Part shown: positions 28,048-32,872 of the stretch, in pieces
Numbering within the stretch: position 1 is the stretch's first letter
How the letters are laid out: each line of letters starts with the position of its first letter
DNA from: Dehalococcoidia bacterium
Lineage (GTDB): Bacteria > Chloroflexota > Dehalococcoidia > Lucifugimonadales > UBA2985
DNA length: 64,000 nt
Assembly (NCBI GenBank): GCA_034423135.1
Contig: DAOUJC010000005.1
Coordinates: 33,985-97,984 of the forward strand
Direction: 5' to 3'
Program-made: the position numbers and the translations under genes
The notes under the pieces: generated by a model
What the model was told of the DNA's origin: nothing
Seen by the model: only the letters and a program-made list of their open reading frames with translations
Database searches by the model: none

Positions 28048-28269
28048 TCACGCAGTTACCTCAAGACGTTGCGGATCATCCACCGGAACAGGACGACCGC
28101 TCGCCTTGAGGTATTGCACCGCAACCTGCGCCGCGTCGCGTAATTCCTCAATGGCTTCTTCCTTGGTGTCGCCGAATGCCGTGCACCAGGGAATCGCAAG
28201 TAGCCATGCGCTCCATCGCCCATCCTCCTCCTCTTCCACGCCGATTGTGAAGCTATATGTGTCTTCCAT
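28048..28269 (-). CDS. HicB-like antitoxin (orphan)
   Basis: EEEEDGRWSAWLLAIPWCTAFGDTKEEAIEELRDA; no HicA ORF seen beside it. Confidence 0.8.
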   Translation of the reverse strand: MEDTYSFTIGVEEEEDGRWSAWLLAIPWCTAFGDTKEEAIEELRDAAQVAVQYLKASGRPVPVDDPQRLEVTA

Positions 28270-28398
28270 GCCAACCCCCTGTGCGAGTTAGGGTGCAGAT
28301 CTGCCTTTGGTCAATGCAATGCGCCAACATTCTATACCGGCAGTCAAACCATGCACAGATGCGCCGAGGTGCTATCCGACCACGTCCACGCGACCTTG

Positions 28399-28433
28399 CC
28401 GCTCGTGGTGAGCCTGTCGAACCATACGAGCGG
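28399..28433. repeat. REP-like hairpin (family A)
   Basis: CCGCTCGT-GGTGAGCCTGTCGAACC-ATACGAGCGG; relatives at 36964, 38896 and 39142. Confidence 0.7.
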
Positions 28434-28483
28434 GCGATTGCCTATGGTACAATCGGTCACAACACTTACGTAGGGTAAAGACT

Positions 28484-30514
28484 ATGAATCAGGACACTAT
28501 CGGTCTGGACTATCTCGAACGAGCCTTTGATGAAGGGCATGCCGAGATTACAGGCGATGGGCGGAACCAGCGCATCCGCTATATCGCCGCCGGCCGCTCA
28601 GAGCGGTGGAGCGACCCGGAGGAGAGAGTGCGGGCCGAGCTGTGGGCGGAGCTCATCTACAGGTACGAATACTCACCCGAACGAATAGGCTTCGAGGTCA
28701 ACGTTCCACGCCGGACTCCAAACGACTACGCCGACCTGGTCATCTACGAAGACGACGACCTGAAGTCACCCTACATGGTCTTTGAGTGCAAGCGCCCCGA
28801 CGTATCCGACGCCGCGTTTGGCCAGTCCATAGAACAGGCCTGCGGCAACCGAGCCAGCCTTGGCGCCAAGTATTGCGGCGCGGTGGCCGGTCTCACTCGC
28901 CGCCTGCTGCGCTTTGACCGCTACCCGCCAGCTGAGCGGGAGAGAAACCACATGACCGATATTCCCGTTCGCTACGGGAGCCCCCCATCCTGGCGCTTCT
29001 TGAAGAAAGTCCAAGGCCGTGATCTGACGACTGTTTCGCGGGAAGAGTTGCGGGCCGCCATCCGCAAGTGCCACCAGACCCTCTGGGAGGGCGGCAGGCG
29101 CAGTGCCATCGCCGCCTTTGGCGAGTTCTGCAAGCTGGTCTTCATCAAGCATCGTGATGAGAAGGATCTGGACCGGAAGGAAGGCCAGCATTATGAATTC
29201 CAGCGAAAGGACGGGGAAACTGCCCCCGACCTGGCCAGACGCATAACGATTCTGTATGAGAGCGAGAAGAGCAGGGAGCCGGACGTCTTTACCGAGAGCA
29301 TCAACGTAGATCCGCCCATTCTGGCGCAGTGCGTGGAACACCTGGAAGGCATTTCCCTTGAGCACACCGAGCTTGACACCAAAGGAGTGGCCTTCGAGGA
29401 ATTCATGGGCAGCTTCTTCAAGGGTGACTTCGGGCAGTACTTCACTCCCCGGGAGTTGATCGCTTTCTGCGTGGAAATGCTTGACCCGAAGCGCACCGAC
29501 CTAGTGCTCGACCCGGCCTGCGGCTCCGGCGGATTCCTGCTCTACGCAATGGACCACGTTCGCCGGGAGGCAGATCAAAGGTACTCTCCAGGCGGCGAAC
29601 AGCACCTCCTGTACTGGCACGACTTCGCCCAGAAGAACCTCTTTGGCATTGAGATAAACGATGAACTGGCCCGGGTCGCCAAGATGAACATGATCATTCA
29701 CGACGACGGCCATACCAACATCGTTGGCCACGACGCCCTGGACTTCTCTGAGAACATTCGCAGCAAGAATAGCGGCGTCGACCTACGCAAATTCGATCTC
29801 ATCCTCACCAACCCGCCCTTCGGCGCAGTCGTAAAGCGCACGGAGAAGGGGGACGGCTACCTAGAGCAGTTCGACTTGAGGCATTACCTGGGCAAGAGCT
29901 ATCCAGTATATTCCGACATGACGGGAGAAGACGGCGACTCCAGCGCGAAGACGGGCGCAAGAGCAGTAAGAGCACGGGCCAGCATCAAGACCGAGCTCCT
30001 GTTCCTGGAGCGGGTTCACTCCTTCCTGAAGCCCGGCACGGGCCGGGCTGCCGTGGTGGTGCCGGACGGCATCCTGACCAACTCATCGCTTCAGGGCGTG
30101 AGGCATTGGCTGCTCGAGAACTTCCAGCTTCTGGCGGTGGTCAGCCTGCCCCAGTTCGCCTTCAGCCACTACGACGCCGGTGTGAAGGCCAGCATAATAT
30201 TCCTGCGCCGCTTAGCCGATGGCGAAACAGTCTCAGACAATGAAGCCATATTCATGGCCCTGGCCGAGAACATCGGGTACGACGCCACCGGGCGCAAGAC
30301 ATTTGACGTTTCCGTGGAGCGGGAGGAGCCGGGCGTGGAGAAGGTTGAGCGGCACAGCTGCGACCTGTTCGACTACCGCGTATATTACGAACCCGTCTCC
30401 ACGAATCTCTTTGAAACCAATTGGAGCGAGCGCCGTAGGGAAACCATACCAGGCACCGGCATAGTGGCCCAGTGGCAGGCCTTCCAGCGGGAACCGACAC
30501 CTTTTTTAGTGTAG
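28484..30514 (+). CDS. restriction-modification protein: HsdR-N-like nuclease domain fused to N6-adenine methyltransferase
   Basis: N-terminal PEERVR...ADLVIY...FECKR nuclease motif; GQYFTPR, DPACGSGGFL, NPPFG. Confidence 0.88.
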   Translation: MNQDTIGLDYLERAFDEGHAEITGDGRNQRIRYIAAGRSERWSDPEERVRAELWAELIYRYEYSPERIGFEVNVPRRTPNDYADLVIYEDDDLKSPYMVFECKRPDVSDAAFGQSIEQACGNRASLGAKYCGAVAGLTRRLLRFDRYPPAERERNHMTDIPVRYGSPPSWRFLKKVQGRDLTTVSREELRAAIRKCHQTLWEGGRRSAIAAFGEFCKLVFIKHRDEKDLDRKEGQHYEFQRKDGETAPDLARRITILYESEKSREPDVFTESINVDPPILAQCVEHLEGISLEHTELDTKGVAFEEFMGSFFKGDFGQYFTPRELIAFCVEMLDPKRTDLVLDPACGSGGFLLYAMDHVRREADQRYSPGGEQHLLYWHDFAQKNLFGIEINDELARVAKMNMIIHDDGHTNIVGHDALDFSENIRSKNSGVDLRKFDLILTNPPFGAVVKRTEKGDGYLEQFDLRHYLGKSYPVYSDMTGEDGDSSAKTGARAVRARASIKTELLFLERVHSFLKPGTGRAAVVVPDGILTNSSLQGVRHWLLENFQLLAVVSLPQFAFSHYDAGVKASIIFLRRLADGETVSDNEAIFMALAENIGYDATGRKTFDVSVEREEPGVEKVERHSCDLFDYRVYYEPVSTNLFETNWSERRRETIPGTGIVAQWQAFQREPTPFLV

Positions 30515-31914
30515 ACCCCGCCAGACTGGCAAAGCCGGAAAGCTTTGCGGTGAAGCGGGGCAAAGTTGTCGGAAGGTTAGATACATGGTTCAATCATCCC
30601 CGGTATGAGTTGCTGCGCGCCAGATTGGACGCTTCAATAGTCAAAACGACCGAGTTGGACGGTTTCCTGTGGTCAATAGCCGGCGGTGCAACGCCAAAAC
30701 TAAGTGATGCTTCTCTCTACACCGATTCCGGGATTAAGTTCCTACGCATCCTCAACGTAGAAGATGGCGAGATTATTGAGCAGGATATCAAATACATCAC
30801 CGATGCGGTTCATCAAGAGGAACTTGGGCGTTCCCAGCTTGAAGCTGGCGACGTGCTTATCACAATTACGGGGCGTGTAGGTTCAGCCGCAGTAATTCGC
30901 GAAGAGCATCTTCCAGCCAACATCAATCAGCACATTGCTCGACTGAGGATTGATTTGAAACGCTGCAGGCCGGAGTTCCTCAGTGAATGGTTGAACTGCC
31001 CCGCTGGGCAACAGCTGTCCAATCGCTCTGTCTCTGGAGGCACACGCCCCGCTCTTGACTATGGAGCTGTTCGCAGCATCCTAGTGCCGTTGCCTGATAC
31101 GCTGGAAGCGCAAGACAAGCTATTGGTCGCGATGGATGCCTCCCGTGCGAAGCGCAAGGCAAAGCTAGCTGAGGCAATCGCACTACTGGCAAGTCTAGAT
31201 GATTTCGTGCTGGACGCGCTAGGTATTGCACCACCGGAGAAGGACTCCAGACGTGCGTTTGCAGTAACGCTTGGCCAGTCACGCACCCAGGGACAGCTTA
31301 ATGCGGACTTCTACCATCCGGAGCGTATTCGGACCTTAGACGAATTGAACAATGCGGGAATGCATACGGAACTGACGCCACTTGCTAAAGTCGTGAATTT
31401 TGAGCGAGCACAGATCAAGTCACCGGATGAGAATTACCTGAGTCTAGCGCACGTGGAAAGCCATACCGGCGAACTGACTGACTCCCAGGATAAGGCGTCA
31501 GGCAATGCCTTTATGTTCCAAGTCGATGATGTTCTATTTGCTCGATTGCGTCCCTACCTTAACAAGGTATATCACGCTGAAATGAATGGCACTTGCTCAA
31601 CGGAGTTCCACGTCCTTCGGGTCAAGGATCGGAATACTCTGCTACCTGAGTATCTCAGCACCATCCTACGCAGCCGTTTGATACTGGCTCAAACTGTCCA
31701 CATGATGACCGGTAACACCCACCCGCGTCTAGTCAACGCTCACGTAGAGAGCCTTCGAATCCCTATTCCCAAGGTGAATGTTCAAAAGACCATCGCAGTG
31801 GACGTTGCGGTTCGGCGCGAGGAGGCACGCCGTTTGCGCGCCGAAGCGGAGGCGGGCTGGCAGGAGGCCAAGCGGTGGTTCGAGGAGCAACTGTTGGGAG
31901 CGGATTCGCCATGA
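30472..31914 (+). CDS. hsdS: restriction-modification specificity subunit (two TRDs)
   Basis: GGATP...ILNV, ITGRVG, NINQH; second TRD FARLRPYLNKV, CSTEF, GNTHPR; helical spacers; start uncertain. Confidence 0.85.
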   Translation: MAGLPAGTDTFFSVDPARLAKPESFAVKRGKVVGRLDTWFNHPRYELLRARLDASIVKTTELDGFLWSIAGGATPKLSDASLYTDSGIKFLRILNVEDGEIIEQDIKYITDAVHQEELGRSQLEAGDVLITITGRVGSAAVIREEHLPANINQHIARLRIDLKRCRPEFLSEWLNCPAGQQLSNRSVSGGTRPALDYGAVRSILVPLPDTLEAQDKLLVAMDASRAKRKAKLAEAIALLASLDDFVLDALGIAPPEKDSRRAFAVTLGQSRTQGQLNADFYHPERIRTLDELNNAGMHTELTPLAKVVNFERAQIKSPDENYLSLAHVESHTGELTDSQDKASGNAFMFQVDDVLFARLRPYLNKVYHAEMNGTCSTEFHVLRVKDRNTLLPEYLSTILRSRLILAQTVHMMTGNTHPRLVNAHVESLRIPIPKVNVQKTIAVDVAVRREEARRLRAEAEAGWQEAKRWFEEQLLGADSP

Positions 31915-32741
31915 CATTTGAGATTCTCATTTCCTGTCACATGCCACCGAACGATGGTCTTGCGGGCATAAGCGAGATGTTGGAGGATGCGCTGAATCAG
32001 GCCTTGGAGTATAGCCCAATAGACTTTGATGAGAGCATGATCCAGATTCACTGCCAGCGGCCGCTAAACGAGGCACCGGCCGACAGAGGCAACCTCCTAG
32101 TCGGTTTCTCTCTGGAACTGCCGGAAGATGACGCTGGAATCAAGTCCGTGGTTGACGGCTTTGTTGGGGCCCTAAGGGACAGGTCAGAAGTCATGCATCT
32201 AGTGCGGTTTGAAGATCCACTCCTTCAAGCCGAACTATCTAAGTGGGCCGCCGAGATTTTCTCGCTGGAGATGAAACTGCGCCGAGTGCTGTCTTTCATT
32301 TATCTGCACGCGTATCAGGTCAGCAATCCCTTCGAGCTACTTCAAGAAGAGCAGGTTCAAATACCACAAGGTGTGAAACCACAAGAGACACAAATGAACA
32401 ACCTTAGCGAGAACGAGTTTTTTCACTTGACGTTCAGCCAGTACATAGGCCTAAACCAGCGCCGCCAAATAGACCTCCGCCACATAGTAGGCATAATCCT
32501 TGATTCGGAGCAATACGGCGATTTACGTCAAGAACTCATGCGGTCTCCAGTATCAGACGGGCGCGATACCGAACTCATGAATAACTTGCAGCAACACTTG
32601 AATGCTATTGAGCGGATGCGCAACTGTGTGGCCCATAACAGAAGACCCAGCGAGGGAATAAGACAAGATTACTCGTTTAATCGCCCTCGCCTGGAAGAAC
32701 TACTGGATAGCTATTTGGCAAGCCTGGCTATTCAACATTAG
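31911..32741 (+). CDS. HEPN-domain protein (putative RNase)
   Basis: LEMKLRRVL helix and C-terminal RNCVAH (Rx4H); ATGA overlap with hsdS. Confidence 0.65.
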   Translation: MTFEILISCHMPPNDGLAGISEMLEDALNQALEYSPIDFDESMIQIHCQRPLNEAPADRGNLLVGFSLELPEDDAGIKSVVDGFVGALRDRSEVMHLVRFEDPLLQAELSKWAAEIFSLEMKLRRVLSFIYLHAYQVSNPFELLQEEQVQIPQGVKPQETQMNNLSENEFFHLTFSQYIGLNQRRQIDLRHIVGIILDSEQYGDLRQELMRSPVSDGRDTELMNNLQQHLNAIERMRNCVAHNRRPSEGIRQDYSFNRPRLEELLDSYLASLAIQH

Positions 32742-32872
32742 TCCCGCCCCAGCCCTTGACCCGCCCGCAACGTTGGTAATACAATCCCCCTGCAACCCAC
32801 GTTGCCCTTGGAAGGGAGCTCTTGAGCAAGGTGACCTTTCCGACCGGGGTGGAGGCGGCTGGGGATCGGGAC

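Follow-up and report, generated by a model that had tools for sequence, protein, structure and literature searches.

The restriction-modification locus considered here lies in a stretch of 64,000 nucleotides (nt) from a Dehalococcoidia bacterium (contig DAOUJC010000005.1, positions 33,985 to 97,984), and this whole stretch is referred to below as the window. The locus encodes a combined restriction and modification protein (RM) followed by a specificity subunit (S) in a different reading frame. Comparison of homologous loci makes it very likely that the junction between the two genes is a programmed −1 ribosomal frameshift cassette. The two genes and the elements found at their junction are as follows.

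28484..30514, forward strand: RM gene, 676 amino acids (aa), 0 frame, identified from the list of open reading frames (ORFs) and Pfam
30489..30492, forward strand: Shine-Dalgarno-like GGGA, a candidate upstream stimulator, 9 nt 5' of the heptamer
30502-30508, forward strand: slippery heptamer T_TTT_TTA (form X_XXY_YYZ) in the RM frame, with its T6 run at 30502-30507
30508..31914, forward strand: S coding sequence, 468 aa, −1 frame, from AGT (which would be the first post-slip codon) to TGA
30512-30514, forward strand: 0-frame stop TAG, one codon past the heptamer and within the spacer
30516-30560, forward strand: two-tier stem-loop of 45 nt, a putative frameshift stimulator, from folding and homologues

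Pfam assigns to the RM protein an N-terminal PD-(D/E)xK nuclease (HSDR_N_2) and a gamma-type N6-adenine methyltransferase (N6_Mtase), while Methylase_S is matched twice in S, giving two target-recognition domains (TRDs). In a comparison with the PDB the closest solved structure to RM is RM.BsaXI (E 1.8e-29), a distant relationship, and the PADLOC labels at the locus are MTase_I and Specificity_I. No ATP-dependent HsdR/Res motor subunit was found among the neighbours of RM and S within the 64-kb window, and the MADS equivalogs of NCBIfam scored below their cut-offs (MAD2 293 bits vs 720; MAD5 74.7 vs 400). Since the RM protein combines nuclease with methyltransferase, S contains two TRDs and a motor subunit is missing, the locus is by its sequence a BcgI/BsaXI-like "RM + S" system, and so a Type IIB-like restriction-modification system, a term that here does not imply a cleavage pattern.

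In the 0 frame the RM gene ends with ...CCG ACA CCT TTT TTA GTG TAG, and the protein terminates two codons past the slippery Phe codon. The −1 frame is open from 30439, directly after a TAG at 30436-30438, and contains an ORF of 480 codons (30472..31914). By conceptual translation, a −1 shift at the heptamer is predicted to give an RM-S product of 1143 aa. The original prediction, made from the sequence of the window, had described this RM ending, the heptamer and the open −1 frame of S, all of which we confirm, and had proposed that a −1 frameshift may yield the 676-aa RM and an RM-S of about 1140 aa, a proposal that the comparison below supports. T6 runs alone are not enriched in the window (2 seen vs 3.35 expected), the sole other one being found at 32418-32423 on the forward strand within gene 3, the gene downstream of S. 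A T6 run followed by a C-rich stem start was seen once, with 0.02 expected. The significance of the junction comes from conservation and not from the window on its own.

To compare the junction across species we scanned for relatives of RM using one genome per species, which identified at least 578, and fetched the best 80 (51-78% identity). With the window these give a comparison set of 81 loci, picked by RM protein similarity alone, from Chloroflexota, Cyanobacteria, Beta-, Gamma- and Deltaproteobacteria, Acidobacteriota, Verrucomicrobiota, Planctomycetota, Bacillota, Actinomycetota, Ignavibacteriota, Deinococcota and others; the hosts are mostly uncultured, with cultured isolates such as Microcystis, Chlorogloea and ESFC-1 among them. 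A common cassette comprising the heptamer, the 0-frame stop, S in the −1 frame and a hairpin was observed in 73/81 loci, so that the conservation of heptamer and −1 overlap, which the original prediction had put forward as a check, is borne out. The shared junction consensus is (C/T)CT TTT TTC GNN TAR GCCCCGC...GCGGGGC. The other eight loci consist of three in-frame fusions, two cuts at contig ends, two with a different RM C-terminus and one degraded second copy.

It could be argued that such a junction is not programmed, and that a homopolymer indel (through mutation, a phase-variable OFF state or sequencing error) has disrupted a single RM-S gene, or that two genes overlap by accident. T runs are error-prone, some homologues in long-read metagenome-assembled genomes (MAGs) have an S gene broken elsewhere, and fused homologues exist. 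However, the same −1 layout and stop codon position recur in these 73 loci across many phyla, sequencing technologies and isolates, the frames are not mixed among loci and the tract length is fixed. In addition, the hairpin covaries, and precisely the loci with an in-frame fusion have lost it, as described below. An unprogrammed origin is thus almost certainly not the explanation.

The details of the slippery site were determined for 72 loci, in which the heptamers are T_TTT_TTC (58), T_TTT_TTT (7), T_TTT_TTA (6) and A_TTT_TTC (1). All 72 stand in X_XXY_YYZ phase with the RM frame. The 0-frame stop is one codon past the heptamer in 69/72 loci and adjacent to it in 3/72, and S is always in the −1 frame. 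While 58/72 loci carry a T6 run, 13/72 carry T7 or T8, and these longer variants are substitutions or shifted stops that preserve the −1 relation of S. RGGA-like tetramers are present at −14/−13 in 57/72 loci, and in the sister subfamily described below GGGAG or GGAG is found 5' of 13/13 C_CCT_TTT sites. A GGGA or GGAG located 7-10 nt 5' of the heptamer may be a third stimulator, as in dnaX, but this role is uncertain because the GGGA bases also encode a conserved Arg/Lys-Asp/Asn.

S-frame start codons near the junction of the window are limited to GTG 30472, which has no Shine-Dalgarno-like sequence, and GTG 30550. The original prediction had stated that S has no ATG before its first conserved block, only GTG 30472 without an obvious ribosome-binding site, and this is correct, with GTG 30550 as an additional codon. 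A start codon with a Shine-Dalgarno sequence was not found at the RM/S junction, unlike the S/gene 3 junction (ATGA) and some loci of the sister clade. An ATG in the hairpin loop of many homologues was considered as the S start and rejected, as it is in the third frame.

The most serious rival to frameshifting is translational coupling, or re-initiation, in which a separate S protein would be made from GTG 30472, GTG 30550 or a non-canonical codon, and the hairpin would only hide the S start until the terminating RM ribosome melts the stem. The RM stop lies 1 nt 5' of the stem, which would be opened by a ribosome terminating there. A GTG or ATG is present at −30 (30472 in the window) in 37/72 loci and a GTG at about +48 in 15/72, a Shine-Dalgarno plus ATG overlap is used by sister-clade loci and one distant plasmid homologue, and gene callers annotate separate S proteins. 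These gene-caller starts are inconsistent, however, with products of 413-494 aa, and the codon at −30 is a by-product of the RM codons CAG/CAA-TGG (Gln-Trp), has no Shine-Dalgarno sequence and is often cut off by S-frame stops. No start is conserved. We observed that 23/72 loci lack any ATG, GTG or TTG in the S frame from the upstream stop to +45 nt, a limit that lies before the conserved S block CFAV(K/R)RGE, and that 17/72 loci have an S-frame stop at most 15 nt 5' of the T-run. Taken over 71 loci, the 20 codons that precede the T-run contain 44 S-frame stops, some as close as the neighbouring codon. The 40 codons that begin with the T-run contain none, and here the frame is open in 71/71. 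The constraint on the S reading frame therefore begins exactly at the slippery site. The region from the T-run to +45, open in every one of these loci, is also translated in the natural fusions, and coupling leaves unexplained both the heptamer and its swap for another canonical heptamer, C_CCT_TTT. On this balance we consider coupled re-initiation to be unlikely.

The stem-loop downstream of the heptamer has an outer stem in which CCCCGC (30516-30521) pairs with GCGGGG (30555-30560), and inner stems at 30525-30528 and 30530-30535 with partners within 30542-30551. The small hairpins that had been noticed here in the original prediction are present, but they are fragments of this single 45-nt two-tier structure. 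The window stem-loop has a folding energy of −25.4 kcal/mol (z −2.93), with equally good folds in 1/200 shuffles. A hairpin is found at the same position in nearly all homologues, where the G+C-rich stem starts 6 nt past the heptamer and the energies have a median of −27.9 kcal/mol and reach −42 kcal/mol; in six loci there is a shorter local hairpin at this position.

RNAalifold applied to a MAFFT alignment of 71 sequences returned four pairs only, because loop-length variation misaligned the inner stem, and the stated structure was therefore tested on the 71-sequence alignment and on a gapless one. In the gapless, structure-blind MAFFT alignment of 41 junctions, 76.6% of cells are paired, compared with 41-50% after shifting the 3' partners by 1-3 columns. 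Compensatory double changes were observed in 12/18 pairs, and 0/500 shuffles match the observed value on any of five measures, although these shuffles ignore kinship. The full 71-sequence alignment agrees with this result. Some of the compensatory changes alter S, such as CCCCG/CGGGG to CCCTG/CAGGG, which replaces Arg with Gln. A covariance model built without the window finds a single strong match in the 64 kb, at 30496-30569 (54 bits, E 1.3e-13), and no Rfam family matches at the RM/S junction.

Natural in-frame RM-S fusions, the presence of which had also been suggested as a check, were observed in 3 of the 81 loci (L001, L013 and L043). Their junction reads ...DPTLFFSVSPAVRAKPECFAV..., which is the predicted trans-frame peptide. 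All three are without the hairpin, the corresponding region folding at −12.0, −14.7 and −17.4 kcal/mol with z about 0. The S part of each is half-size with one TRD, while cassette loci carry a full two-TRD S. A possible class of half-size S with a frameshift was rejected, since its members were mostly S genes disrupted further downstream or cut at contig ends. Separately, interrupted S genes were seen in L002, L006, L016, L018, L019, L032, L044, L059 and L060, in which the conserved C-terminal end (…W(F/I)E.QLL…) recurs in a different frame or at a distance of 1-2 kb. Frameshift errors in long-read MAGs could account for these interruptions, as could insertions or genuine decay.

A sister RM subfamily, 44% identical and again sampled by protein similarity alone, contains both types of junction. 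In 29 loci there is a canonical heptamer (T_TTT_TTC in 12, T_TTT_TTT in 4 and C_CCT_TTT in 13) followed by one codon, a stop and a GCCCCGG-based hairpin, without a start codon. In 37 loci there is a Shine-Dalgarno sequence with an (A/G)TGA stop/start overlap and no hairpin, and S starts M-S-F-x-L-S-P, which is homologous to the F-F-R-L-S-P found past the slip site. The median fold energy is −26.6 kcal/mol for the heptamer loci vs −7.6 kcal/mol for the overlap loci (Mann-Whitney p 2.6e-11). The observed junctions of this subfamily, heptamer with hairpin on the one hand and Shine-Dalgarno with ATG on the other, are mutually exclusive.

The sister subfamily also bears on transcriptional slippage, in which RNA polymerase would insert a U in the T6 run so that some mRNAs encode an in-frame RM-S. 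Homopolymer runs can induce slippage of RNA polymerase, bacterial cases of this are known, and T7 or T8 runs are present in the 13 loci noted above. T6 is short for efficient slippage, however, and the C_CCT_TTT sites, whose longest runs at this position are T4 and C3, argue against transcriptional slippage and phase variation alike. The heptamer is always in X_XXY_YYZ phase with the RM frame, and a hairpin 6 nt downstream has the geometry of ribosomal frameshifting; not yet transcribed when the polymerase slips, it could have no effect on that enzyme. Transcriptional slippage is accordingly a very improbable source of RM-S. The original prediction had also raised T6/T7 phase variation or an on/off switch of restriction, which is not supported, given a tract of fixed length and its replacement by C_CCT_TTT in the sister clade.

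The cassette is not restricted to these two groups. An exact-pattern scan for the cassette core identified at least 120 stretches, and 74 of 117 newly fetched loci are RM/S junctions. Distant RM subfamilies of 733-790 aa (L085, L086 and L165; L091, L109 and L135) share the heptamer, the stop and the spacing, the L091 type being about 44% and the L085 type about 30% identical to the window RM. Their hairpin interiors and S N-termini differ strongly, for example GCCCCTCG...CGAGGGGC, so that the cassette is older or more mobile than any single subfamily. Plasmid homologues, which reach no more than 35% identity across the whole protein, have ordinary coupling or a fusion at the junction.

A similar cassette was seen between the genes for a Mu-type portal protein (PF06074, 0 frame) and a Mu F-like head protein (PF04233, −1 frame) in prophage regions of Prevotella, Segatella and Bacteroides, at L100:5268-5320 (Segatella copri HDE04), L103, L099, L133, L092 and about 27 more loci, all selected by the cassette motif itself. 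At that junction CCT TTT TTC GAY TAA precedes a hairpin of 7 bp, GCCCCNN...NNGGGGC, with covariation at its inner pairs (AC/GT, TC/GA, GC/GC). By its sequence this may be a second, unrelated programmed frameshift joining portal and MuF; the −1 ORF has ATG codons 45-170 nt downstream, and independent initiation at these is a possible alternative.

Under programmed frameshifting, ribosomes translating RM would reach U_UUU_UUA (30502-30508) with the 45-nt hairpin (30516-30560) at the mRNA entry channel. The majority would stay in frame and probably terminate two codons on, giving the 676-aa RM, while a fraction would slip back by one base and read through S to give the 1143-aa RM-S. The fusion junction is predicted to be ...EPTPF(L/F)-SVDPARLAKPESFAV..., that is ...EPTPF(L/F)SVDPAR..., and the predicted junction peptides are EPTPFLSVDPAR or EPTPFFSVDPAR. 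Because S has no start of its own, it would be produced solely as the RM-S fusion.

A possible purpose of such an arrangement is that a single message would yield both RM and RM-S, and one RM with one RM-S would be the equivalent of (RM)2S. This rationale is based on two earlier findings, that BsaXI is an (RM)2S enzyme (PMC11997821) and that an engineered EcoKI M-S fusion is active but requires extra free M in vitro (PMC3510504). The half-size S of all three in-frame fusions would fit this purpose, as a homodimer of such fusions is already in the right ratio (n=3 loci).

Several points weigh against frameshifting as set out here. In the window the spacer is 7 nt and the position that in most homologues is occupied by the first G-C pair of the stem is an A.C mismatch, and the stimulator is a simple hairpin, a pseudoknot not being demonstrated. 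About half of the loci, the window with its GTG 30472 included, have a GTG or ATG in the S frame 30 nt upstream, and some independent S initiation may occur at these loci. To this is added the kinship ignored by the shuffles in the covariation test. As the support is comparative, slipping at the heptamer and its efficiency are things that we infer from the sequences, and the stoichiometric rationale, tuning of subunit stoichiometry having been raised in the original prediction as well, is plausible, drawn by analogy with the BsaXI and EcoKI enzymes. With somewhat better than even confidence, we propose that these loci form a widespread Type IIB-like clade, present in hundreds of genomes of many phyla, in which S would exist solely as a frameshift extension and the efficiency of the shift would set the ratio of RM to RM-S for an asymmetric (RM)(RM-S) enzyme. 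The slippery site with hairpin, the Shine-Dalgarno sequence with ATG and the in-frame fusion would then be three interchangeable states linking multi-subunit and single-chain enzymes.

Downstream of S the locus contains one further gene.

31911..32741, forward strand: gene 3, 276 aa, its ATG overlapping the S stop (ATGA)

This overlap is ordinary translational coupling, unlike the RM/S junction. Gene 3 is found directly 3' of S in 21/80 homologous loci, in-frame fusion loci included, and has no match in Pfam, PADLOC, NCBIfam or the PDB. An R-N-C-V-A-H sequence near its C-terminus resembles, by eye only, the HEPN Rx4H motif. The block formed by RM, S and gene 3 (window 28200-32750) has a G+C content of 0.53-0.60 vs 0.64-0.67 in the flanks, and is bordered by nuoD/nuoB-like genes (reverse strand) on one side and purF/purM/purH (forward strand) on the other. 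The low G+C content and the flanking genes suggest a horizontally acquired island; no tRNA gene is present in 20-40 kb of the window. Just 5' of RM there is a small ORF (28048-28269, reverse strand) with a weak match to HicB-like antitoxins (E 5e-4, under the Pfam cut-off).

A close parallel in a cellular bacterial gene is E. coli dnaX, which produces tau and gamma. Both have a canonical heptamer with a stable stem-loop about 6 nt downstream and a Shine-Dalgarno-like upstream element, which in the RM/S cassette is a possible one, and in both the two products of one mRNA join one complex in a set ratio, as is proposed here for RM and RM-S. The differences are that the dnaX shift truncates the protein, as its −1 frame stops at once, whereas here the shift would add a whole second protein and it is the 0 frame that stops, and that the dnaX heptamer is A_AAA_AAG while the RM/S heptamer is U-rich. 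In having a 0-frame stop just past the slip site, and so a choice to terminate or extend, the cassette resembles the phage tail assembly chaperone G/GT, OrfAB of IS3/IS911 and retroviral gag-pol, in which an abundant short product is accompanied by a rarer, C-terminally extended fusion. The gag-pol heptamer of human immunodeficiency virus 1 (HIV-1) is U_UUU_UUA, the same as in the window. Those examples belong to mobile elements and viruses, while here a defence enzyme would be extended, and what it would gain is a DNA-recognition subunit.

Among restriction enzymes the likeness is to BcgI and BsaXI, which have an RM with nuclease and N6-adenine methyltransferase, a two-TRD S and no motor subunit. 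Split and fused ("RMS") architectures both exist among characterised Type IIB enzymes (PMC11997821). The characterised enzymes differ from the present locus in that their chains are separate, each with a start of its own, or joined in a single frame, and the accessible literature describes frameshifting for none of them. The engineered EcoKI HsdM-HsdS fusion ("Type IMS", Roberts et al. 2012, PMC3510504) similarly links the two subunits, M by its C-terminus and S by its N-terminus, and is functional, and its need for free M corresponds to the mixture of M and M-S that a frameshift would supply. It differs in being artificial, in belonging to Type I (with HsdR and ATP) and in having been made by deleting a natural 1-nt overlap; the natural EcoKI M/S junction uses coupled initiation (PMC3510504).

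Frameshifting in restriction-modification systems was not found in the literature searched, coverage of which is incomplete, so that prior notice is possible (for example in REBASE). It is absent from a 2016 review of frameshifting (PMC5009743), a 2013 genome-wide survey (PMC3711429) and a 2025 survey preprint, and the text part of the Antonov 2013 supplements contains no restriction-modification cluster. As a mechanism this is canonical, and the novelty lies in the restriction setting and in the evolutionary interchange with Shine-Dalgarno plus ATG junctions and with in-frame fusions.

Outside mobile elements, few cellular bacterial genes have a conserved programmed frameshift (dnaX, copA and some others). 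If the RM/S cassette is what it appears to be, it would be, as far as we found, the first such frameshift to be described for an enzyme system of anti-phage defence, and would form a large new class of cross-phylum frameshifts with a functional rationale, namely two RM chains per S. Many "restriction endonuclease subunit S" annotations, the starts of which are now guessed, would be corrected, and expression work would be affected, as cloning S from a guessed start would give a shortened protein or none. The cassette would also provide evidence of an evolutionary path connecting split (Type I, IIB) with single-chain (IIB "RMS", IIG) enzymes, a path earlier proposed from engineering experiments (PMC3510504, PMC6158711).

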